Assembly (NCBI GenBank): GCA_963719225.1 | Contig: CAVRAY010000002.1 | Location: forward strand, 1-64,000 | Reading direction: 5' to 3' | DNA: 64,000 nt | Source of the DNA: Thermoanaerobaculia bacterium | Lineage (GTDB): Bacteria > Acidobacteriota > Thermoanaerobaculia > UBA5066 | Shown here: positions 37 through 30,033 of the stretch, in pieces | Numbering within the stretch: position 1 is the stretch's first letter | Layout of the letters: every line of letters begins with the position of its first letter | Position numbers and translations under genes: made by a program | The notes under the pieces: generated by a model | Told to the model about the DNA's origin: nothing | The model's input: the letters and a program-made list of their open reading frames with translations, nothing else | Databases searched by the model: none

Positions 37-1691
37 ATGCGTCCTGACAGTCGTTTGACTCGTTGGATCCTGCCGAGCCTCCTCGGAGTCGCGGTCACAT
101 GGTCCGTCCAGGCCATCACACTTCCGCCCGGCTTCGGCGATGCCCTCGTCGCCACGGTGAGCGCGCCGACGGCCCTCGCCTTCACGCCCGACGGACGGCT
201 CCTGATCACGACGCAGGGCGGAACGCTGCGGGTCGTGCAGGGCGGCGTGCTCCTCGGCGACGCCCGCCCTGTCCCTCGGGTCGGCGGTCTGCTCGAACGG
301 CGAGCGCGGGCTCCTCGGCGTCGCGGTGGACCCGCAGTTCGCGACGAACCATTTCGTCTACCTCTTCTACACGTTCAACAAGAACGCGGCGGGCTGTCCG
401 ACGCTCAACACGACGAGCCCCGTGGAAAGGATCTCGCGCTTCACGCTGGACGTTCCCACCGCGAACGTGATCAATCCGGCGACGGAGCTCGTTCTCCTGG
501 ACAACGTCCTGAACTTCGCGGGGAACCACAACGGCGGGCAGCTGCGGGTCGGGCCCGACGGCTTTCTCTACGCGGGCATCGGCGACGGCGGGTGCGACTA
601 CGCGGGCGACAGCGGCTGCGCGGGCGCGAACGACGCGTCGCGCGACCGGAACATCCTGAACGGAAAGATCCTCCGCATCGCGCGGGACGGCTCCGTGCCC
701 GCCCACGAATCCGTTTCTGGGCGCGGGTACGGCGCGATGCAACACGGGTCCGTCGGCGCCGGGCACGATCTGCCAGGAGACCTTCCTCTGGGGCCTCCGC
801 AACCCGTTCCGGTTCGCGTTCCGCCCGACCGACAGCGCGCTCTTCGTGAACGACGTCGGGCAGGGCGCTTACGAGGAGATCGATCTCTCGCAGGCGGGCG
901 GCGACTACGGCTGGCCGTGCCGCGAGGGCGCGCACACGGCGCTCACCACGAACCATTGCAGCCCGACGCCCCCGAACATGATCGACCCGTTCTTCGAGTA
1001 CCTTCACGGCACGATCCCGGGCACGTCCACGACGGGCTGCGGGTCGATCACGGGAGGGGCCTGGGTGCCCGCGGGGATCTGGCCGTCCGCTTACGACGGG
1101 ACGTACCTCTTCGCGGACTTCAACTGCGGCGCCATCGCGCGCCTCACGCCCGGCGCCCCGTCGACGGCCGCCGATTTCGCGACGGGGCTCGGGGCCTCGA
1201 CCGTCGTCGAGCTGCTCTTCGGCCCGTCACCCATCGGGACCTCGCTCTACTACACGACGTACGCCGCCGGCGGACAGGTGCGCCGGATCGACTTCGCGCG
1301 CCGCCGCCGCCCGCCGCGACGTTCCGGGCGCTGACGCCGTGCCGCGCAATCGACACGCGCGGCGCCACGGGGCCCACGGGCGGGCCGGCCCTCCAGGCGA
1401 ACGGCACGCGCACGCTTTCCGATCGCGGGCGCGTGCGGCGTTCCCCCGGCCGCCGTTGCCGTGGCCGCGAACGTGACGGTGACGGGCTCGAGCGTCGCGG
1501 GGGCCGTGCGGATCGGTCCCGCCGGAACGACGCCGTCACTCGACACGTTACCGTTCCACGCGGGCGCGACGCGCGCCGACAACGCCGTCCTCGGCCTCTT
1601 CGGAACGCCCGCCGGCAGCGTGACGGTCGTCTCTGGGTTCGCTTCCGGGACCGTGCACCTCATCGTCGACGTGACGGGTTACTGGCAGTAG
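37..1691 (+). CDS. Secreted PQQ-dependent sugar dehydrogenase (glucose/sorbosone DH-like beta-propeller) with C-terminal PCRxxDTR...DVxGYF domain; split by about 4 frameshifts
   Basis: AGGAG RBS at 27-31 and a signal peptide. Motifs PTALAFTPDGRLLI, NHNGGQLRVGPDGFLYAGIGDGG, NGKILRI and NDVGQGAYEEID..GGDYGWP are spread over ORFs 37..849, 326..1705, 846..1334 and 1461..1691; the last ends HLIVDVTGYWQ*. Frame switches near 265, 715, 1310 and 1420. Confidence 0.8.
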
Positions 1692-16947: not shown

Positions 16948-17607
16948 GTGGCGGACATCCGCGACGCCGAGGCCATGGCCCGCGTCGTACGCAGCGTCTA
17001 CACGGGGACGCGCGGCGAATACGGCAGCGCGGACTCGCTGCCCGTGGCCGAGGACGCACCCACGAACCCGCTCGGCCTCCATGAGATCGCGAACCTCGCC
17101 GCGGCCAAGATCGTCGAGATGTACGGCCGCGTTCACCGGATCAAGGGGACGATGCTGCGCCTCTCGAACGTCTACGGGCCGCGGGCCCAGATGCGCCACT
17201 CGCGCTACGGCGTCGTGAACTGGTTCGTGCGCCTCGCGCTCGACGGATCCGTCATTCCCGTCTTCGGCGAAGGGACGATCCTGCGCGACTTCCTCTATGT
17301 CGACGACTGCGTCGAGGCCATCCTCCTCGCGGCGGGCGAGGAAGCGGCGGTCGGCGAAGCCCTGAACGTCGGCGGCGGCGAGCCAACGACCTTCCGCGAG
17401 GTCGCCGAGACGCTCTCGTCGCTCACGGGCTCGCGCTGGGAGTTCGCGCCCTTCTCCGCCGAGCGCCGGGCGCAGGAGCCCGGCGACTTCTACTCCGACA
17501 TCAGGAAGATCGGAAGGATCCTCGAGTGGCGTCCCCGGACGACGCTGCCCGAGGGCCTGAAGAGGACTCTCGACTACTACCGCTTGAACAAGCCGCATTA
17601 CTGGTAG
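16948..17607 (+). pseudogene. NAD-dependent epimerase/dehydratase, truncated and internally deleted
   Basis: LRLSNVYGP and RDFLYVDD are present. The GxxGxxG N-terminus and the segment between DIRD and the YTGTRG strand are missing; His occupies the expected catalytic Tyr position. Confidence 0.7.
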
Positions 17608-17615
17608 GGTCGACC

Positions 17616-17651
17616 GCTTTCCGCCGGCACATCCGGACGGAGGGGCTTTTT
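17616..17651 (+). terminator. Possible intrinsic terminator between convergent genes
   Basis: Imperfect GC hairpin (ctttccgccgg...ccggacggaggg) followed by ttttt. Confidence 0.4.
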
Positions 17652-17659
17652 CCCGCGAG

Positions 17660-19537
17660 TTAGCGTGCAACGGTGACGCGTGTGTCCATCGTGGCGCCGC
17701 CCTTCGCCGAGAAGCGGGCGATCCCGGCCTGCTCGAGGTCGAGGCTGAGAACGTAGTCTCCGGGCGCCTCCGGCGCGCGCAACGTGAAGGCGAGATCCGC
17801 TCCCCCGCCGGGCGGCACGCGCCGGTCCGGCGCGACGATGATCTGTTCCGCGCGCGATGCGCCGTTCCACGTGGCCACGAGCCGCACGTTGTTCATCCAG
17901 GTGCAGGGGCCCTCGTTCGTGACGCGCGCACGGGCCTGGACTTCCTCGGCGGGCCCTATCCGCGTCGGCAGGGACACCGCGCTCCACATGGGTCGGTACG
18001 CGCGAGCAGGCATCGGGAGGGCGCCGGCGGCCCGGACGAGATCCCGGACCGGCGCCGACAGGGCGTGGAAGATCGTGAAGGAGTCCGAGCGGGCCTCGGC
18101 GAACGGCTCGCCGCTCTCCGCGAGATAGCGCCGGAAGCAGTCGTCCCGCGGAGGGAGAAGGACGACGGCCGGGTCGGGAGCCGTGCGAACCGCTTGCTGG
18201 ATCGGCGCGTAGCGGTCCGAGTCCTCGCGCGGAATCGGCGCAGCCACGATCTTCTCGCCGGACTCGAACGTGATCCGATAGGCCGCCCAATAACTCGTCC
18301 ACACTCGCGCGATTCCCATCGAGCCGAGCTTGGCGATCAGAGGTCCGAGCGGGCCCGTGACCTGCGAGTCGTCGGTGTCCTGGAGATGTCGGTGCGCGTG
18401 GAACGCGCTCGAGACGTTCGAGGCGAGGAGCACCCCGAGACCCGCGCCAAACAGGAGGCGCGCGTTCCGCCCTTCGAGTCTCGCGAACGAGACCCCGAGC
18501 AGCGCCGCGAGCGGGACATAACCCGCGACCAGGAATCGCGGCTCCGAAGGAGCAAGCCGTCCCGAGGTGGCGGCGCTCACGGAAAGGACGGCGAAGACGA
18601 GGACGAGAAGGCGCACGCGGCGGTCCCGCCGCGCCGCCACGACGGCCGGCAGCACGAGGGCGAGGACGAGAAACGGCACGATCACGCGGGCGAACGGAAA
18701 GGAGGAGTGTGGATCGTCCGAGAAGTTGGGCCGCGCCGCGCCGAGGAAGACGGGGAGCGTCTCCGTCAGGAAACGAGAAACGTTCGCGAGGAGTCCCCGG
18801 CCCGCCGCCGGGGCCAGCTCGCGGGCCTTCAGACTGGCCCATCCGTGGCGCACGTTCCAGACGATCCACGGCGCCGCGCCGAGGAGCCCGCCGCACGCCC
18901 AGGCCGCCCATCCGCGCGCCGGAACCCGCCGCACGCCGTCGGCGAGAAGCCAGACGGCCGCCGCCACCGCCACCGGAAGCGTCAGGGGAGTGACCCAGAG
19001 CCCGAGGCCGGCGGCAAGCCCGAGGCCGGCGAGAACGATCACGGCGGGCCGGTCCGCCGCGAGGCGGTCGTCGGCGAGGAGCGCCAGAAACAGAGTCGCG
19101 AGACCCAGCAGGGCGACCATCTCGTAGAGCCCGTCGGACGTGAGTCCCTTGTACGGGAGAAAGAACGGCGGCAACGCGAGCCATGCGCAGGCCGCCATCG
19201 CAGGCCGCCGGCCGAAGAAGCGCCACACGAGAGCGCCGGCGCCTGCGAGATAGATCGCGTAAAGAAAAGCCATCGTCGCCCGGAAGACGCCAGGGGTCGC
19301 GCCGAAGAGCGCGAACGAGGCGGCGACGAGGTGTGGCTCGATCGTGCCGCCGTAGTTCGTGCCCCAGAAAACGAGAGGGTGGCTCCGTCCGTCCAGGATG
19401 TGTGTCGCCATGAGCGACACCACGGCCTGATCCGCGCCCCACGGGATGCGCGCGGTCCCGATCAGGAAAACGCACAAGGCGGCCGCGAGGGCCGCCAGGA
19501 GAGCGAACGGGAAGGTTTCCGGAAGCCGCGCTTTCAG
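17660..19537 (-). CDS. GT-C (ArnT/PMT-like) membrane glycosyltransferase with a C-terminal Ig-like domain
   Basis: WGADQAVVSLMATHILDG...FWGTNYGGTIE; many TM segments; tail VTNEGPCTW...APEAPGDYVLSLDL. Frame stays open upstream of TTG 19477 to CTG 19537; start uncertain. Confidence 0.75.
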   Translation of the reverse strand: MKARLPETFPFALLAALAAALCVFLIGTARIPWGADQAVVSLMATHILDGRSHPLVFWGTNYGGTIEPHLVAASFALFGATPGVFRATMAFLYAIYLAGAGALVWRFFGRRPAMAACAWLALPPFFLPYKGLTSDGLYEMVALLGLATLFLALLADDRLAADRPAVIVLAGLGLAAGLGLWVTPLTLPVAVAAAVWLLADGVRRVPARGWAAWACGGLLGAAPWIVWNVRHGWASLKARELAPAAGRGLLANVSRFLTETLPVFLGAARPNFSDDPHSSFPFARVIVPFLVLALVLPAVVAARRDRRVRLLVLVFAVLSVSAATSGRLAPSEPRFLVAGYVPLAALLGVSFARLEGRNARLLFGAGLGVLLASNVSSAFHAHRHLQDTDDSQVTGPLGPLIAKLGSMGIARVWTSYWAAYRITFESGEKIVAAPIPREDSDRYAPIQQAVRTAPDPAVVLLPPRDDCFRRYLAESGEPFAEARSDSFTIFHALSAPVRDLVRAAGALPMPARAYRPMWSAVSLPTRIGPAEEVQARARVTNEGPCTWMNNVRLVATWNGASRAEQIIVAPDRRVPPGGGADLAFTLRAPEAPGDYVLSLDLEQAGIARFSAKGGATMDTRVTVAR

Positions 19538-19576
19538 GTCTTGAACTCTAACCCGAGGGAGCGGCGTCGCTGACTC

Positions 19577-20042
19577 TTACTGGAAGTAGCCGGTGATGTC
19601 GAGGATCAGGTTCGTGGTGACCGCACCGCCGCAGCAGGTGCCGTAAGTCGCCGAAAGATCCGGGGTCGACACGGCAACGGGAATGATCGCTCCATTCGCG
19701 ATCGCCGGCTCGAAGGCGACGAAGTTCAGCGTCGAGACCAAGGGAACGGAGCCGCCCGTCGGCCAGAGGACCATGTGGCCATCGGCCTGCGGAGACACGA
19801 CCGTGGCATTCAGGGACACGGCCTTCGCGGTCCCCGGAACACCGCAGACTCCCTTGAGCGTGAAGGTCCGCAGGGTGCCCTGGGTCATCGGGCCGCCGAA
19901 CCCGCTGCGTGTGTCCGCCGCGCGGCACGGCGTGACCGCGAAGAACTGAAGGCCCTGCGCGTTCGCCGGCAGTGACCACGCTCCGGCGGCGAGAAAGGGC
20001 AAGGCGAGGAAAGCGCACGCACAAGACGACGAGTATCCTCAT
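19577..20042 (-). CDS. Small secreted protein made only of a signal peptide plus the PCRxxDTR...DITGYF domain; frameshift near 20015
   Basis: AGGAGG RBS (20049-20054) before ATG 20042. MRILVVLCV joins AFLALPFLAAGAWSLPANA in another frame; ends LILDITGYFQ*. Confidence 0.8.
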
Positions 20043-20048
20043 GGCAAG

Positions 20049-20080
20049 CCTCCTATAGGACGGTTAGTAGCGAGATTCTA
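20049..20080 (-). promoter_or_regulatory. Putative -10 box and strong Shine-Dalgarno for the stand-alone domain gene
   Basis: TAGAAT at 20080-20075 and AGGAGG at 20054-20049, in an AT-rich spacer. Confidence 0.55.
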
Positions 20081-20113
20081 TCTCAAGTAGTTTCAGAAGG
20101 AAGTGTAAAGATC

Positions 20114-22038
20114 TCACTGGAAATATCCGTTCACGTCAAGGATGAAAGTCCACTGGAGCGGCGGAATTGTTGAAAACAGAGAAGGTTGTGGTCGTCGCCG
20201 AGAGGTAGACGAGGGCATTGTTCGCCCGGGTCTTGAGGGCCGGAAGCTGATGGAGCTGGTGTTCGGCGAGAGAGACATCGGACGGGTACAGGACGAGCTC
20301 CCCCGGGGCCCCCACGTTCGTCACCGTGAGGTTCGCCGAGAGCGAGATGCCGCTCGCAGGGATCCCGCAGACACTCCCGACGTTAAAGCGACGCGGGTTG
20401 ACGGGCGAGCCCAGCGGCTGCAGGGCGGGGGCCCCGAGCGGGTTCACGGGATTTCGCGTGTCGATGACGCGACAGGGCGTGAGCGAATGGAACTTGGTCG
20501 CGACGGGGCGCGCGGCGCGCAGGTAGGCGTGCCGGGCACGACGCCCGAATGGCGTGCGTCGTGGCGGAACTGACCCCACGGCAGGACGCCGGTGGCCTTC
20601 GGGTTCCAGACGTAGACGAGAGAATTCGGGTACGACGGGAACGGCGTTCCCGCGATCGCGGCGACCTCGACGGCCGCGCCGTCCGACTCGAAGTCATCCA
20701 CCGCGACGCCTCCGACGGCGCCCGCGACATTGAAGAGAAGCCTCCCGCAGGATGACTGCCGTCGTCCGTGAGCTGGACGCCCGTGTTCGAGAAGACGCAG
20801 ATCTCGCCGTTCGTCGGGACGAGGACCTCGGGCTCAGGGCCGTTGAGGATGTCCGCGATGACGGGATCGCCGGCGTTCGTGGTCGCGTGAGTCAAGTTGA
20901 ACGAATAATCCTTCGGTTGCCGGCTCCAGAGGAGCGCACCCGTACCCTTGAACGCGTAGACGTGGAACGTCGCGCTCGGACCGGAGTTGTCGTCGCACGC
21001 GACGACGTCGGGAATGCCGTCACCGTCGAGATCGCCGAGCGCGGGCGCGTTCACGACCTGCCCGTCCACGCTCACGGGCCAGTTGAGCACGGGCGAGCCG
21101 TCGCAGTGGAACGCGTACACCTTGTGCGCGCGCCCGGCGAAGTAGTTGGCCGTGCCGATCACGATCTCCGGCTTGCCGTCGCCGTCGATGTCGCCGATCG
21201 CCGGCGAGCTGGAAATCGCCTGGTCCATGGGGATCGGAAACCCCGGAAGCTCCGTACCGTCCGGCCGGAAGGCGTGCACCCGGCCGCCGGTGCCGATCGA
21301 GTAGTCGGCTCCGATGACGATCTCGAGCTTGCCGTCGCCGTCGAGGTCGAAGAGGGCGGGAGACGAAAAGATCGTGTCCGTGTTCGCGTAGGGCCAACCC
21401 GGCTTGTCGAACCCGTTGCGCCCGTCGACGAGATAGATCCTGTAGTCCAGGCCCCCGATCGCGACTTCCACGATGCCGTCGCCGTCCACGTCGCCGATCG
21501 CGGGGCTCGACATGACGGGGTCGGTCAACCCCGCCGGCGGCTCGGTGTCGAGCGTGGCGCGATCCCAGAGCTGCGTGAAGACGGGGCTCGCCGCGGGACC
21601 GTGATTCTTGTACGCGCGGAACCCGCCGGGCTTCGAGGTGTCGAAGGTCGAGCCGTAGCCGACGACGATGTCCGGCAGCCCGTCCCCGTCGAGGTCGCCG
21701 ACGGCGGGCGTCGAGTACACGTCTGCCGGCAACACGAGCGGCATGCCCGCCGGAACCGTGCCGTCGTATTTCACGACCCAGAGCTGGCCGCCGGCGTTGC
21801 CGAACACGACGGACTTGTGTCCCGGCGTGAGGGCGAGGTCCGCGATCACGGGCTTGCCGTGCGCGGCCCCGAGCTGGCTTGCTCCGGGCCCCGGCACGGT
21901 CTTCGGGAAGCCGGCCTTCGCGGAGCCGGGGGGCGGGCAGGGCTGCCCGACCGGGACACATGCGGCAGCGCTCACCTCCGGCGACCTCGCGAGAATTGCG
22001 AGGGCGAAGGCGGCAAGCGCGACGTTTTTCGACTTCAT
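20114..22038 (-). CDS. Secreted FG-GAP/VCBS-repeat beta-propeller protein with the shared C-terminal domain; frameshifted
   Basis: Signal peptide [17 protein letters not shown]. Five repeats of type S[ST]PAxGDxDGDGxx[ED]IV. C-terminus in ORFs 20444..20701 and 20136..20579, ending ILDVNGYFQ* at 20114. Confidence 0.8.
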
Positions 22039-23421
22039 TCGAAGTACCCCGTCACGTCGATCACGAGATCGAGCGTGCCCGCGGCGTTGTTCTTCACCGT
22101 TGCACGCCCCGTGCCGTCGCGGGCGAGGAGGACGTAGGCGTTGTTCGCCCGCGTCCGGCTCGCGCGAAAGCTGATCGACGAGGCGTTCGGGATGCCCGTC
22201 CCCGCGGGATAGATTACGAGGTCGCCGGTCGCCTGCGGCGTGACGACCGTCACGTTGAGCGCGACGGACGTCGCCGCGGCCGGCACGCCGCAGGCCCCCG
22301 TGAGCGTGAACGTGCGCGTCGCGTTCGCGGCGAGCGCGGGGCCGCCGAGCGGCCCGGTGGGCCTGCGCGTGTCGACGAGCCGGCAGGGAATGACGGCGTG
22401 CAGCATCGACGTGACGGGGGGTGCTGCAGGCTGCCAGCCGAGCTGGAGCACCTCGAAATCGCTCGCGTGGATCCCGGAGAAGGCGGGATTCAGGACGCCG
22501 TTGTTCCAGCGCGTGTCGTAAGTGCCCTGCACGTAGAGGTCCGTTCCATTGTCCGCGACGATGAGGCCGTACGTCTTCATCGCCTGGAACATCTTCTGGG
22601 CGATCGCGGGGAACGTCGAGAGGTCCTTGCCCGCTTTGAGGCGCAGGCGCGTGCCCAGAGGAGGCGCGTTCGGGTTCGAGCCCGCGACGTGCGACGCCGG
22701 AAAGACGTAGCCGTTCGAGTCGCGCAGCGTGACGCGAAACGCGTGCTGGATGGGACCCGCCGCGGTGGCCTCGTCGTAACGCACGAGGCCGGGCAGGATC
22801 GCGAGGCCGGCGGCGTCGGCGCTCGTCCACCCCTGAGGCCGCCGCGCGTTGCTGTCGAGGGAGAAGACGGCGCCCGAGCCCGCGCGCCACGTGCACGAGG
22901 CGGAGCCTGCGGGCAGACAGCGCGTATTCCAGGTCTCGAAGAGGAAGCGGTGACCCGAGTCGACGATCAGCATGTGCTTGTCGCCCCGGCACGGGGACGT
23001 CGGGTACGAAGAATCGCAGTTGCCGGGATAGCCGCCTTCGATCCAGTGCGGCTGCGTTTTCGCTTCGACGGGGATCGGATAGCCTGAAGGCCGGCCGGAC
23101 GCGCCCGTGTCGCTCTCCGTCGCGTAGTCGAACGCCACGGACTCGAGCGGCTGCGTGCCGGGCACGACGATGTACGGCATGCCGTAGATCGCCGTCGCCC
23201 CCGCGTCTCCGCCGAAATCCGGATGCATCCCCTTCGTTCCGCCGATCCACGTGATGTACGTCGCGCTGTTTGTGTCCACGGGTGCCGAGGTCACGTCGGC
23301 GTTCCACCAGCTGTCCGCGGGAAGAAGCGGCAGCGGTCCCGGCAGCGGCCCGCCCTGCACCTGGCCGAGCGCCGCGCCGGCTGCGGCGAGAAACGTGACG
23401 ACGAGCGCAACGAGCGGTCGG

Positions 23422-23438
<17 letters not shown>
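22035..23438 (-). CDS. Secreted protein: uncharacterised N-terminal domain plus the shared C-terminal domain
   Basis: Signal peptide; [38 protein letters not shown]; ends VIDVTGYFE*. Confidence 0.85.
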
Positions 23439-25762
<2,324 letters not shown>

Positions 25763-25779
<17 letters not shown>

Positions 25780-27559
25780 TCACGTCGGCCACGAAGTCGA
25801 GCGCGCCGCCGGAATTGTTCCGCGCCACGATGGCGCCGTCGAGCGCGAGGTAGATCTGTACCGAGTTCGCGCGCGTCCGGCCCGCGCGGAAGCTGATCGA
25901 GGAAGCCGTGGGGGCTGACATCCCGCCGGGAAAGACGAGGAGGCCCCCCTGCGCCGCGGGATTCACGACGGTGACGTTCGCGGAGACCGCGACGGCTCCG
26001 GAGGGAACGCCGCAGTTGCCGGGCACGATGAACGTCCGCTGCCCGGCGCCGCTGATGGCGGGGCCGCCGAGAGGCCCGGCCGCGTTGCGCGTGTCGAGGA
26101 GCCGGCAGGGCGTGAGCGGATGGAACGTCGTCGCGGCCGAGACGGGCGGCGGCGGCAATCCGCCGCCCCCGCCGCCCACGACGGCGAGGCAGCCGGCTGA
26201 GGCGCCCGTGTCGAGCGTCGAGCCCACGTACCGCGAGATCGTCTCCGGATGGAACGCGTACGTCGTCCCGGAGTTGCAGGGCCCGATGTGGCAGTAGCTC
26301 ATGATCGTGCCCGCTGCGCTGTAGCCGTTGATCATCAACGGAGCCGGGCAGGAAGTCGGGCCCGTGTAACAGGACTGCCCGTTGTAACAATGATCGGGCG
26401 CCGGGGCGGCGTAGCAGTGCGTGTGCGGCGAGCCGAGGTTGTGGCCGGTCTCGTGTCCGACGATGAGGGTGTCGCCGAGAAGGTACGGCGTCTTGAAGAG
26501 CTGGCAGAAGCTGTAGTCGTAGGAATCTCCGCAGACCGAGCTCGCAAGCCAGGCGATGCCGGAGGCGGAGTTGGTGCCCGGTTGCTTCCCGGACAACATC
26601 GCGGCGACGGAACGCGGATACGTCGCGTTCGAATAGGTCGCGTTCCAATAATTCGTGAACTCGGTGAGCTCCGGCCCGTCGGCGTTCCCATTGTCGTTCA
26701 CGTTGTAGGGATCCGCGACCGTCGAGACGCGGAGGAACGTCGTGCCCTGGAGCAGGCGCAAATTCAGGTCCCGCTCGTACATCACGTTGACCGACGCGAT
26801 GAGCTGCGCGATGTAGTTCGTCGCGTTCGTCGTGTTGTTCGACCAGTACGCCATGTACTCGTTGTCGGTGTCGACCGCGAGGACCCCGCTGTGGAGAGTG
26901 GACAGGGCGTTCGAGCGGCGCGGCGGGAGAGCCTCGGCGCTCCTTGTCGGAGCGGGCTCCCACGAAACCGCGGTCTCGACGGAGTCCTCCTGGCCGCATC
27001 TCCACGCGGCTCCTTCCGGGACGCGCGGCCGTGCCAGGAGATGCCGCTCTCTCGAGTCCGCGACGTCCCGCGCGATCTCGTGCGTTCCCTCCGGCCCGTG
27101 GACGAGGCCGGAGAACGTACGGGTGGCGGGATCGAGCGCGACGAAGAGGCGGTTGCCGGCGCCCTCCAGATCCGATCCCCAGAAGAAGACGAGCTTCGAG
27201 CGCGGCACTTCGGTCCGGAACGGACCCTCGACCCGATAGATGCGCGCGCCCTCGGCGTAGATCTCGTGGCGGACGAGATGGACCCTCCGGCGTACGCCCG
27301 GCGCGGTCGGGAACGCGTCGATCTCGCGTCCCTCTTCGGGTGCCAGCGCGAGGAGCGCGGGCGCGACTTTCTCGTCGACGGAGAAGAGCTCGGCGAGTCC
27401 GCGGTCGGCCGGCAGGTCGACGATCTGGCCGGGGCCTCCGGCCCGAATGGGATTTCCCCGGGCGCCCGCCGCGCCGGCAGGATCGGAAAAGACGAAGGCG
27501 GCGACCGTCAGGCCCGCCCAAATGACGACACGTCTTCCCATACGCCAAAGTGAAGTCAT
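25763..27559 (-). CDS. Secreted M12/reprolysin-like zinc metalloprotease + shared C-terminal domain
   Basis: [11 protein letters not shown] and GTIMSYCH; Gly/Pro linker; ends VADVNGYYQ*. Start at ATG 27559 or 27541. Confidence 0.9.
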
Positions 27560-27764
27560 TCTCTTATTCACAGTCCTTGCCGCAACCCCTGCCCCGTGCC
27601 CCAAATAGGATTCTTCGCTATGAAGTGCGGAACCCTAACGTTTCGTTGATCTTACTTCTCCGGTGCAGCCCGAGGCGAGATTGTTCTTCAAGATTCGCAG
27701 GGGTTGTCCGCGGAGGGACGGTGTCAAAAATTGGTGGTCATGCGGGGGACACCCGCAGTTTTCG

Positions 27765-28283
27765 TCAGCGCCGCCGCGCGGACTTCATCTCTGCACGCGC
27801 TTCGCGATCGGCTTCGCGGCGGCGGATCGTCTCGCGCTTGTCGTGCAGCTTCTTGCCGGTCACGAGCGCGATCTCGACCTTGACCCTCGGTCCCTTGAAG
27901 TAGAGGTTGAGCGGCACGCACGTGGCGCCCGATCTCTGGATCTTCGAGGCGAGACGGACGATCTCGCGCTTGTGCAGGAGGAGCTTGCGGTTTCGCTTCG
28001 AGTCCACGTTGTTGTAGCTGCCCGCGCCGTACGGGGGGATGTGGACGTTCCAGAGCCAGGCTTCGCCTCCGGCCACCGCCACGTAGCCGTCCTGCAGGCT
28101 GGCCCTCCCTTCTCGGAGCGATTTCACCTCGGTTCCCGTCAGCGCGACGCCGGCCTCGAGCTTCTCCTCGATGTTGTACTCGTGAAAGGCGCGCCGGTTC
28201 GAGGCGATCGGCCGGTTGCCGGCGTTCTTCTGGGCGGCGCGCGCGGCCGCCTTCTCGCCCTGCCTCTCGATCCGGGACTTCAC
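27765..28283 (-). CDS. smpB: SsrA-binding protein
   Basis: NRRAFHEY, EAGVALTGTEVKSLR, RKLLLHKREI, GKKLHDKR. Confidence 0.97.
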   Translation of the reverse strand: MKSRIERQGEKAAARAAQKNAGNRPIASNRRAFHEYNIEEKLEAGVALTGTEVKSLREGRASLQDGYVAVAGGEAWLWNVHIPPYGAGSYNNVDSKRNRKLLLHKREIVRLASKIQRSGATCVPLNLYFKGPRVKVEIALVTGKKLHDKRETIRRREADREARAEMKSARRR

Positions 28284-28296
28284 GGCGGTCTCGTGG

Positions 28297-30033
28297 TCAG
28301 TCCGACGCGTCCGCGACCATCCGCTTGAACTCGGGCGTGAGCTCGGGATCGAACTGCGTGCCCGCCTTCGAATCGAGGATGTCGATCGCCTGGTAGTCCG
28401 ACAGGACGGCGCGGTACGACGTCGGCGACGTCATGGCGTCGAACGCTTCGCACAGGTGAATGAGGCGCGCGCCGAGGGGAATCTCCTCGCCCTTCAGCCC
28501 GTCGGGATAGCCTCCGCCGTCCCACCTTTCGTGGTGGTGCCGGATGAGCGGGGCGATCGGGTACGGCCATGGAATGTCCTCGACGAGGAACGCCCCCACG
28601 CGCGGGTGCTGGCGCACGAGAGCCAGCTCCTCGTCGGTCAGCGTGCGCTTGGAGTAGATGGTGTCGTAGTTGAGCTCGCGCATCCCGATGTCGTGGAGGA
28701 TGCCGGCCACCGTGATCTGCTCGACTTCCATCGGCGTCACGCCGAGCTGGGCGGCGAGCTTGCGGGCCAGGCGGCCGACGTTGAAGCAATGCGTCTTGAG
28801 GGCCGTGCGTTTCACGAGGCCCGGCTCGAGGAGCTTGTTGACGAGCCCCCGGTACGCCTCGCGGAACCGCGCTTCGCTGCGGTTGCCCGCGAGGACGTTT
28901 CTCAGGACGACGTGCGCGGCACGCAGCGCCTCGCGCACTTCCGGGTTCGGGCCGTGGCGGAAAAGGAGAGAGAACAGGACGACGCCCTCGGCCGAGCTGT
29001 CGAGAACGCTCGACTGGATGGAGACGATCTCGGCCCGGCGCACGGCGGGCGCGCCCCCGTGAGGCGTGTCGAGAGGCCGCCAGGACGGATCGGAGATGAA
29101 CGAGAACGGGACCGCCGTCTTGGCGAAGATCTTCTCGAGGTTCTCGAGGAGCGCGGGCGCGATGTCCGCGTCGAGCGGACGCCGCGCCGCGATCGTGACG
29201 GTCGCGCCGCCGGGAACGAAGGACGAGACGGCCGCGACTTCGACCTCTTCGTAGCTCAGACAGGTCGGGAGGTAGAGCGCGATGAACTCGGCCTCGCGCG
29301 GCGTGAGGCCGCCGCCCGACGCCGCGGCGACCTTCCCGGGAGCGCTGCGCGAGAGCGTCTCCTCGACGAGACGGTTCGCGCGCGCGATCGCGCTCGGGAG
29401 CGGCCCCGCGGCGTCGGTGTCTGGCTCGGTCGCAATGGTGGCGGGCCTCCGGAAGATGCCCGACGTCGAGAGCTGCGCCGTCGAAAATCCCGACGTGCGC
29501 TCGGGCGCGGGCCCTGTTACGGCGGTCATTCGGTCGAGCGAACGCTCGATCTGCGGGGGCGGCTCGGCGAAGATCACGTTCCCTGCCCCGCGCGCGTCCG
29601 CGATGCGGCGCAGCTCGATCGCGAAGCGGCGCAGAAGGTCGGAGATCTCGAGCACGTCGTCCTGGGAAAAGCCCTGACGGCCGGCCTTTTCGCGCACGTC
29701 GACGAGTCCCATGATCCGTCCGTCGAGATAGAGAGGCGCGAGAAGCATGCGCGTGGACGTCGCCTGCACCATCACGTCCGTCAGCTTTCCCGCGAGATTC
29801 ACGTTGTTGACGAACGTGGGCTCGCGGTGCTCGTAGATGTGGTTCACGAGCGTGTCGTTGCGGCCGAGCCGTTCGGCGAGGTGGTCCGTGCGGCCGAAGC
29901 CGAACTGAGCCTTCAGCCGGAACGTGCCGCTCGCCGGATCGAGCGTGTAGAACGCCGCCTTGGCCGGCCGCCATTTCTGGCCGAGCACGGCGAGAAAGTC
30001 CTGATAGTACTTCTCCTCAGAGGGCGCGAGCAC
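28297..30033 (-). CDS. GAF-like + HD-GYP cyclic-dinucleotide phosphodiesterase
   Basis: ILHDIG; HHERWDGGGYPDGLKGEEIPLGAR; GTQFDP. Confidence 0.88.
   Translation of the reverse strand: MLAPSEEKYYQDFLAVLGQKWRPAKAAFYTLDPASGTFRLKAQFGFGRTDHLAERLGRNDTLVNHIYEHREPTFVNNVNLAGKLTDVMVQATSTRMLLAPLYLDGRIMGLVDVREKAGRQGFSQDDVLEISDLLRRFAIELRRIADARGAGNVIFAEPPPQIERSLDRMTAVTGPAPERTSGFSTAQLSTSGIFRRPATIATEPDTDAAGPLPSAIARANRLVEETLSRSAPGKVAAASGGGLTPREAEFIALYLPTCLSYEEVEVAAVSSFVPGGATVTIAARRPLDADIAPALLENLEKIFAKTAVPFSFISDPSWRPLDTPHGGAPAVRRAEIVSIQSSVLDSSAEGVVLFSLLFRHGPNPEVREALRAAHVVLRNVLAGNRSEARFREAYRGLVNKLLEPGLVKRTALKTHCFNVGRLARKLAAQLGVTPMEVEQITVAGILHDIGMRELNYDTIYSKRTLTDEELALVRQHPRVGAFLVEDIPWPYPIAPLIRHHHERWDGGGYPDGLKGEEIPLGARLIHLCEAFDAMTSPTSYRAVLSDYQAIDILDSKAGTQFDPELTPEFKRMVADASD

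Follow-up and report, generated by a model that had tools for sequence, protein, structure and literature searches.

A stand-alone jelly-roll protein of Thermoanaerobaculia probably acts as filler subunit for a split trimeric domain on secreted proteins

Results

The stand-alone gene and its cluster

The window, that is, the whole 64,000-nt stretch of DNA analysed here, contains five consecutive domain-bearing genes between 27604 and 19577, the last of which is the stand-alone gene (Table 1). It reads from an ATG at 20042-20040 to a TAA stop at 19579-19577 on the reverse strand, and its frames and the lengths of its homologues confirmed what a sequence-only reading of the locus had stated, namely that it codes for a signal peptide and the domain only. 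The signal peptide ends in A-x-A followed by Gln and has no lipobox Cys; anchoring as a lipoprotein was rejected on the signal peptides listed, which lack this residue.

Table 1. Coordinates of the stand-alone gene, its upstream elements and its neighbours in the window.
Feature	Position	Strand	Remarks
M12B metallopeptidase with C-terminal tag	25763..27604	-	
M12B metallopeptidase, IPT/TIG domain, Thr-Pro linker, C-terminal tag	23422..25779	-	
469-aa protein, signal peptide, without Pfam family	22035..23444	-	C-terminal tag at 22038-22403, used as partner in the complex model
FG-GAP repeat protein with C-terminal tag	20114..22038	-	five one-base indels, in-frame stop absent
ACACT(A/T)CC motif	20099..20106	-	conserved in close relatives; between the upstream stop and the -10 hexamer
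-10-like hexamer TAGAAT	20075..20080	-	32 nt 5' of the ATG
Shine-Dalgarno AGGAGG	20049..20054	-	6 nt 5' of the ATG
Stand-alone gene	19577..20042	-	Sec-type signal peptide and one domain; about 155 codons
Signal peptide	19958..20042	-	three frames, two one-base losses in short runs (near 20035 and 20009)
Mature jelly-roll domain (126 residues), stand-alone subtype	19580..19957	-	uninterrupted by stops or shifts
EPAIANG segment, residues 84-90	19691..19711	-	distinguishes stand-alones from tags; within the predicted trimer interface
GT-C/PMT-like membrane protein	17660..19477	-	directly downstream of the stand-alone; start possibly further up
Sixth window copy, tag subtype	1350..1688	+	broken, frameshifted upstream

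For comparison we used reference sets defined by architecture, comprising 98 tags and 71 stand-alones from 77 loci, which were gathered through stand-alone patterns and are thus not blind to the motif. A tag-ending gene lies directly upstream in 44 of the 64 stand-alones with room to look and a domain-bearing gene directly downstream in 18 of 52, while 65 of the 71 stand-alone loci contain another copy of the domain. The orthologue of the GT-C gene follows the stand-alone in 14 close loci and in a paralogous cluster of the same genome. In 9 further loci of 48, at least one of the two genes next downstream is a GT2, GT4, epimerase or MurJ gene, a raw count taken without background control. Next to the cluster, between 5312 and 19477, the window itself reads as a glycan locus, whose open reading frames resemble an ABC-2 exporter pair, several glycosyltransferases, an epimerase, a methyltransferase and membrane proteins of GT-C type (read by eye, two of them scanned).

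The upstream region contains, as had been pointed out before, a Shine-Dalgarno sequence; AGGAGG pairs with the anti-Shine-Dalgarno in the tail of the genome's single 16S (GGATCACCTCC). A Shine-Dalgarno word of at least five letters was seen in 48 of the 71 stand-alones, with a choice of starts that favoured it. The hexamer TAGAAT occurs at 218 sites genome-wide and the ATGs downstream of these peak at 6-9 nt, which shows that leaderless starts behind it are common in this genome, where many genes had been said to look leaderless. Judged from this pattern, TAGAAT behaves as a putative -10 element. At the equivalent place, TAnnnT is present in 12 of 15 aligned upstream regions of stand-alones and missing from two, among them that of the paralogue in this genome; the remaining row is too short in the alignment, and its longer sequence has TAGAAT. 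The claim of an own promoter could be upheld for close relatives, in which the TAnnnT hexamer is conserved, but not for distant homologues: among the 47 stand-alones with a tagged upstream neighbour (more distant homologues), 19 start at most 18 nt from the upstream stop, which leaves no intergenic room for a promoter, and a separate promoter is therefore not universal. A consensus promoter scan of 17000-28500 returned no full sigma-70 site, and the same scan found no terminator 3' of the stand-alone gene. The ACACT(A/T)CC motif is a possible promoter or regulator site.

The proposal that the gene is highly expressed is weakly favoured by its stop codon and not by its codon usage. TAA closes 27 of the 71 stand-alones vs. 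11 of the 98 tags (Fisher p 6e-5, with kin that are not independent), and in this genome 9 of 21 translation genes vs. 126 of 1828 background genes. The codon-adaptation score, a poor discriminator, was moderate, at the 60th percentile for the window stand-alone and the 85th for its paralogue.

Integrity of the gene and its paralogue

A frameshift had been noted near 20015. The reading frame is indeed shifted there, but by two one-base losses rather than one (Table 1), and the five further one-base indels in the FG-GAP neighbour lie within 20141-20735. Each of the seven affects one base of a short run, together they span about 730 nt, and in-frame stops are absent. No indels were found in the two flanking genes tested, and the stand-alone protein is identical to its closest homologue in 130 of 150 aligned residues. 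The frameshifts are very probably assembly errors in a poorly polished patch of the two-contig assembly.

An intact paralogue, 68% identical, stands last in a parallel cluster at C2:777-785 kb. The genes there are ordered as in the window (tagged peptidase-like genes, FG-GAP gene, stand-alone), and the same GT-C gene follows. Over G000:C2:775000-788000 (L001) this cluster shows about 75% DNA identity, and several of its genes are frameshifted too. Elsewhere in the genome (G000:C1:38566-39282) a peptidase-like N-terminus is joined in frame to a tag that lacks its first third, by deletion or misassembly.

It is improbable that the window copy is a recent pseudogene, redundant beside the intact paralogue at C2:785 kb; even so, the reading of the family would be unaffected. 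The two shifts in the signal peptide and the five in the neighbour would fit decay, as would the presence of the paralogue and the translation-gene operons on C1, almost all of which look intact. The clustering of single-base indels in short runs without any in-frame stop, the indel-free flanking genes and the high identity to the closest homologue speak against it, and so does the greater density of frameshift sites on C2 (10 in about 50 kb vs. 1 in 44 kb on C1), although this noisy comparison gives a hint only. The genome-wide frameshift count produced false stops from wrong-frame queries and missed the known shifts of this cluster. We conclude that the stand-alone gene is real and conserved, and most likely intact in life.

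Stand-alones form a subtype distinct from tags

Both AIANGA and YGTCCGG, described earlier as marks of the stand-alone, are present in the protein. The first proved to be a family trait, as residue 90 is Gly in 99% of the 71 stand-alones vs. Asn in 93% of tags, while the CC of the second occurs in only 6 of 113 aligned rows. Residue 87 is Leu or Ile in stand-alones vs. Arg (84%) in tags, and Pro85 is extra in stand-alones. The additional CC was also considered as a cross-linking site and rejected; any extra late Cys was seen in 22 of the 113 rows. The stand-alone had further been called the most divergent copy of the window. Its identity to the other window copies is 34-43%, compared with 53-63% among the complete tags, but the fragment at 1350 is equally distant (32-46%).

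Two HMMs, one from each of the reference sets of tags and stand-alones, split the copies of this genome cleanly, with +59 and +67 bits for the two stand-alones and -25 to -63 for 29 tag-type copies. We also built a quick IQ-TREE tree of 241 rows, taken from 45 of the 98 tags, 45 of the 71 stand-alones, 37 triples, 12 ANAA triples and 4 window copies. One branch (SH-aLRT 93, not starred, in an alignment of 146 columns) unites all 45 stand-alones with the ANAA clade and, from the 37 triples, all third copies and all second copies but one (36); by subtraction, its opposite side takes in 44 of the 45 tags and 34 of the 37 first copies.

Two variations of this scheme were observed. In a divergent lineage (G120; L113, L121), three stand-alones each stand directly behind a tagged gene; the two subtypes of this lineage are told apart by QRSNAG vs. 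QRGNAG and possibly represent a separate origin of the split. Five loci (L020 in G067:C87, L066, L079, L103 and L108) hold two stand-alone genes each, in tandem in L020. Together with the distinct copy-2 and copy-3 clades of the fused triples, this suggests that two different fillers may occupy the second and third positions.

The stand-alone accompanies C-terminal tags across genomes

Genomes were scored for 25 candidates each, with a blank taken as not found. The domain was detected in 44 of 151 genomes of the class and the stand-alone in 36 of these 44, so that its conservation in related genomes, on which the earlier reading depended, is borne out for a subfamily of its own. One unpublished genome (G004) is among the 44 and the 36, and no claim depends on it alone. 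Thirty-one genomes gave a strong stand-alone match, in every case confirmed as signal peptide plus domain, and the 13 weaker ones were searched again in full or inspected. Five of the 13 do have the stand-alone, in split, extended or divergent form or truncated at a contig end; another five have fibre-type N-terminal copies only and no stand-alone (in G030, one of two matches was read); the rest are one genome with a divergent N-terminal piece, one with a triple only, and G019.

Where single C-terminal tags or a stand-alone are present, 36 of 37 class genomes have the stand-alone. In G019 (99% complete, 180 contigs), which has three C-terminal copies, one of them checked and tag-type, the stand-alone was not found, and this genome counts against reading the stand-alone as a filler of tags unless its assembly has a gap. 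Among about 224 genomes from other classes or phyla, 3 match: G363 contains triples and two further copies at or near contig ends, G377 one fibre-type copy, and G344 seven single internal copies, with no stand-alone found. In each of the seven G344 proteins (L147-L151), a single internal copy of the ANG type separates a conserved upstream domain from a C-terminal head; these copies constitute a subfamily of their own and are probably homotrimeric.

A widespread domain that comes in threes

The genome itself yielded 33 matches: 28 C-terminal tags on large and likely secreted proteins, two stand-alones, one N-terminal copy on a DUF1800 protein and one on a collagen protein (two matches). Passengers were scanned for 18 C-terminally tagged proteins outside both clusters and five other proteins. 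They include peptidases M11 and M12B, propellers of the Vgb-like, SBBP, PD40 and FG-GAP types, and beta-helix, BACON, DUF11 and Ig-like proteins. N-terminal copies generally head collagen or other fibre-like repeats, and two of them (L122, L124) stand on collagen proteins; collagen fibres must trimerise. The L124 protein (G000:C1:2745000-2748500) is a BclA-like fibre of N-terminal domain, collagen repeats and C-terminal head, with a frameshift inside the domain. On the DUF1800 protein (L125:1406-3439, G000:C1) the N-terminal domain is of tag type; in L066 and L076, stand-alones have DUF1501 genes nearby.

In wider searches, 159 homologues of 77-247 aa were found, most of the 120 listed being 150-161 aa long, and the named relatives are Thermoanaerobaculia or Acidobacteriota metagenome-assembled genomes. 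The profile matches 34,201 representatives (clusters at 50% identity). The ESM Atlas gave 30 close clusters without a common Pfam family, and look-alikes are commonest in Actinomycetota and Acidobacteriota. Pfam did not match the stand-alone or, at E 0.1, the 98 tags, save for BclA_C in 2 of the 98 at E 0.003. NCBIfam has no family for the domain, its sole weak match being PGF-pre-PGF for one tag (E 0.15); PHROGs did not match it, a profile-sequence search of the PDB with the domain gave nothing, and tblastn against 50,697 phage records found no match.

Among the best 150 of the 34,201 matches, copy numbers were 3 in 131 proteins, 6 in 14, 9 in 2, 5 in 2 and 2 in 1, so that 147 of 150 hold a multiple of three. 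A narrower profile counted 131 with three copies, 13 with six, one with nine and 5 others in its best 150. The ranking favours many copies and leaves singles and doubles unsampled; the near-absence of fours, fives and sevens is nevertheless meaningful, since the ranking should place them above threes. One exception to the threes, with two ANAA-type copies before an RHS-like region, was seen at L144 (G014:C35).

In the 131 triples the copies adjoin (median gap 0), and 122 of them form the end of the chain. The uniform ANAA type accounts for 94 of the 150 and forms its own clade without a positional pattern. Among the 37 three-copy proteins outside this type, the first copy is tag-like in 36 and the third stand-alone-like in 34, and the order tag, stand-alone, stand-alone (T-S-S) appears in 31, which are mostly kin rather than independent events and were picked with a stand-alone profile. 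Of the six-copy proteins, three read T-S-S-T-S-S and six without cysteines read all T; the ANAA and no-Cys triples are possibly Bryobacteraceae-like and actinobacterial. A separate search of G002 found one N-terminal T-S-S triple and no free copy. Given the T-S-S scores, the tree and G002, a fused triple looks like one tag with two joined fillers. One T-S-S triple-bearing protein folded with a pTM of 0.88. The domain is very probably a trimer module.

Predicted fold and complex

The AlphaFold2 monomer of the stand-alone is all-beta, with a pLDDT of 94.9. Among solved structures, the Bd2133 fibre tip comes closest (VIA Z 9.5, rmsd 2.8 over 108, 15% identity; next row 7.5). Foldseek against the PDB also placed this tip first for the single domain, with E about 1e-3 and no match reaching 0.001, and returned PKD/CBM pieces only for the triple. 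Structural viral matches include phage tail-fibre proteins.

We next consider the complex of two stand-alones with the tag of the 469-aa protein. It scored 0.91 vs. 0.02 for the best control, with at least 97% contact agreement between runs and a partner pLDDT of at least 93. The pairing of the stand-alone with another window copy suggested earlier is thus supported by the model. Of 157 solved complexes, 116 reach the score mark applied, as do 2 of 215 mismatched pairs, figures that are roughly valid for a 2+1 job; the test passes close cousins of true partners and, as one job, cannot separate a heterotrimer from a homotrimer. In the model the tag contacts the two stand-alone copies through two different faces, which gives a closed, side-by-side ring of three chains. 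The invariant residues P11, N51 and D121 pack against the S-x-x-F strand of the next chain. Residues 89-90 are seen on both faces, so they would lie near the axis, as inferred from the contact list only. D16, R18 and R31, invariant and outside the predicted interface, could form a ligand site.

Donor-strand complementation through the terminal strand, which had been put forward, was not borne out: residues 115-126 remain inside their own domain in the monomer model (pLDDT above 90), and in the modelled complex the strand gives contacts and is not donated. The lattice or filament proposed along with it does not agree with the contacts either, as these form a closed ring. What stands of that interpretation is the co-assembly with tagged enzymes or an adaptor role; it is the best reading because the stand-alones are conserved, the frameshifts look like errors and the model joins stand-alone and tag.

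Proposed function and alternatives

We propose that the stand-alone is a cargo-free filler which completes a 1:2 heterotrimer with each single-tagged passenger, as a surface anchor, and consider this reading as a whole probable. As to its parts, the heterotrimer of one tag and two stand-alones is likely, while surface anchoring as the purpose of the trimer, an argument by analogy, has about an even chance. Both the tagged passenger and the stand-alone would be exported by Sec and assembled after export, with two stand-alones joining the single terminal tag of the passenger into a three-subunit knob. Arg87 and Asn90 in tags, set against Leu or Ile and Gly in stand-alones near the axis, would favour the combination of one tag and two fillers and spare unrelated passengers from trimerising with one another. 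Two filler genes for about 29 passengers would have to reach a high output, which fits the strong Shine-Dalgarno sequence, the promoter and the TAA stop. The finished trimer may bind a surface glycan or another envelope component, as SLH/CWB2 pseudo-trimers do.

The 1:2 trimer could instead be a composite export signal read by an outer-membrane secretion system, or the stand-alone a folding chaperone that is later released. The complex model fits this equally well, and one C-terminal domain common to unrelated passengers recalls type IX signals. We still hold it unlikely, as the look-alikes are commonest in Actinomycetota and Acidobacteriota, whose envelopes differ, the domain is also N-terminal on fibres and on the DUF1800 protein, and none of 77 downstream neighbours stood out as a translocon gene. 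The T-S-S fusions are covalent, which favours a permanent complex over a released chaperone.

There is also little to recommend a lattice or filament, in which stand-alone homotrimers would polymerise into an S-layer-like sheet or an Ena-like pilus with tagged enzymes built in at a low rate. The own promoter with a strong Shine-Dalgarno sequence in close relatives, the TAA enrichment and a fold that weakly resembles Ena pili (7a02, Z 7.3) and capsid cement proteins would agree with such a structure. Yet the same module occurs as a closed triple ending single chains, the modelled contacts close a ring of three, an N-terminal connector is absent and the extra Cys pair is rare (6/113 rows); the codon scores (60th and 85th percentile) and the 19 of 47 stand-alones starting close behind a tagged gene (at most 18 nt from its stop) do not point to it either. 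Least likely are independent homotrimers, with self-trimerising tagged proteins and the stand-alone as a separate small trimeric lectin or adhesin of the same fold: the uniform fibre-type and ANAA-type copies, the homotrimeric Bd2133 tip and the genomes G019 and G344 without a detected stand-alone would suit them, but they do not account for fusions that read T-S-S, for the close linkage with tagged genes (another copy in 65 of 71 loci) or for the absence of the stand-alone where only fibre-type or triple copies exist.

Beyond the cluster, the heterotrimeric filler may belong to a very widespread display system, a beta-sandwich trimer anchor that Thermoanaerobaculia would have split into single tags on dozens of unrelated secreted enzymes and adhesins and a mass-produced filler for the other two positions, with the 1:2 ratio governed by an Asn/Arg vs. 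Gly/Leu switch near the threefold axis, and that exists elsewhere as fused triples or collagen-fibre homotrimers; we put this broader picture forward tentatively, at somewhat less than an even chance. No published description of the domain or the filler was found in the literature searched, in which subscription journals are thinly covered, so a protein-display system with such a split trimer is undescribed as far as searched, and a family model is absent. The domain is found in 34,201 clusters and is carried by a large part of the secreted proteins in an abundant class with few cultured members. Should the proposal be true, it would explain how proteases, beta-propellers and adhesins are retained at the surface of these bacteria, and would give SLH/CWB2 anchors an all-beta counterpart in which, unusually, passengers share a filler and an Asn/Gly difference governs 1:2 assembly. 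Protein display might also profit from such a small, defined heterotrimer.

Comparison with known systems

Shared terminal tags and small dedicated partners that complete a composite module are familiar from secretion. Type IX secretion uses a common C-terminal domain as signal on many secreted proteins, and type VII substrates have small partner proteins. The present domain differs from both in its threefold architecture and its N-terminal copies, and neither Pfam nor NCBIfam linked it to such families.

Small jelly-roll subunits with cysteines are also found in the Ena1/Ena3 pilins (Z 7.3 for 7a02 and 6.2 for 8pdz), although at an rmsd of 4.7-5.3. Ena pilins carry an N-terminal connector, which is missing here, the mature chain of the stand-alone beginning at the first strand; the extra cysteines are not conserved. 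The C1q/TNF-like heads, including the C-terminal domain of BclA, are jelly-roll trimers tied to collagen and offer heterotrimers (C1q; APRIL-BAFF-BAFF, 4zch). They reached a middling Z of 6.0-6.5, and the triple model could not be superposed on single-chain C1q (TM 0.20) or on APRIL-BAFF-BAFF (TM 0.16); the BclA_C match was confined to the two tags given above (E 0.003).

The nearest structural match is the tip of the Bdellovibrio MAT fibre Bd2133 (PDB 8OND/8OK3), a C-terminal beta-sandwich of about 120 residues that forms a trimer and has a pocket at its interface (PMC10769870). Identity to it is 14-15%. Bd2133 bears its homotrimeric tip on a beta-helical fibre, whereas the present domain occurs singly as a tag of unrelated passengers, in fused triples and as a cargo-free subunit. 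The long trimeric beta-helical fibre that precedes the domain in MAT fibres is absent from the stand-alone gene. The domain appears to share the fold of the Bd2133 tip but is not a MAT fibre.

SLH and CWB2 are three-copy modules that bind wall polysaccharides (PMC8559796). Three repeats stand at either end of diverse surface proteins, and in our case genes of glycan synthesis often adjoin. Neither profile matched the stand-alone (Pfam) or the 98 tags (E 0.1). SLH and CWB2 are mainly alpha-helical with their repeats on one chain, while the domain described here is all-beta in the model and, in Thermoanaerobaculia, apparently split 1 + 2 between two genes. Three copies per unit would nonetheless be common to both, judging from the 147 of 150 proteins with copies in threes and from the predicted triple (pTM 0.88). 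By this analogy, the domain would work like a pseudo-trimeric anchor without being a member of the SLH or CWB2 families.
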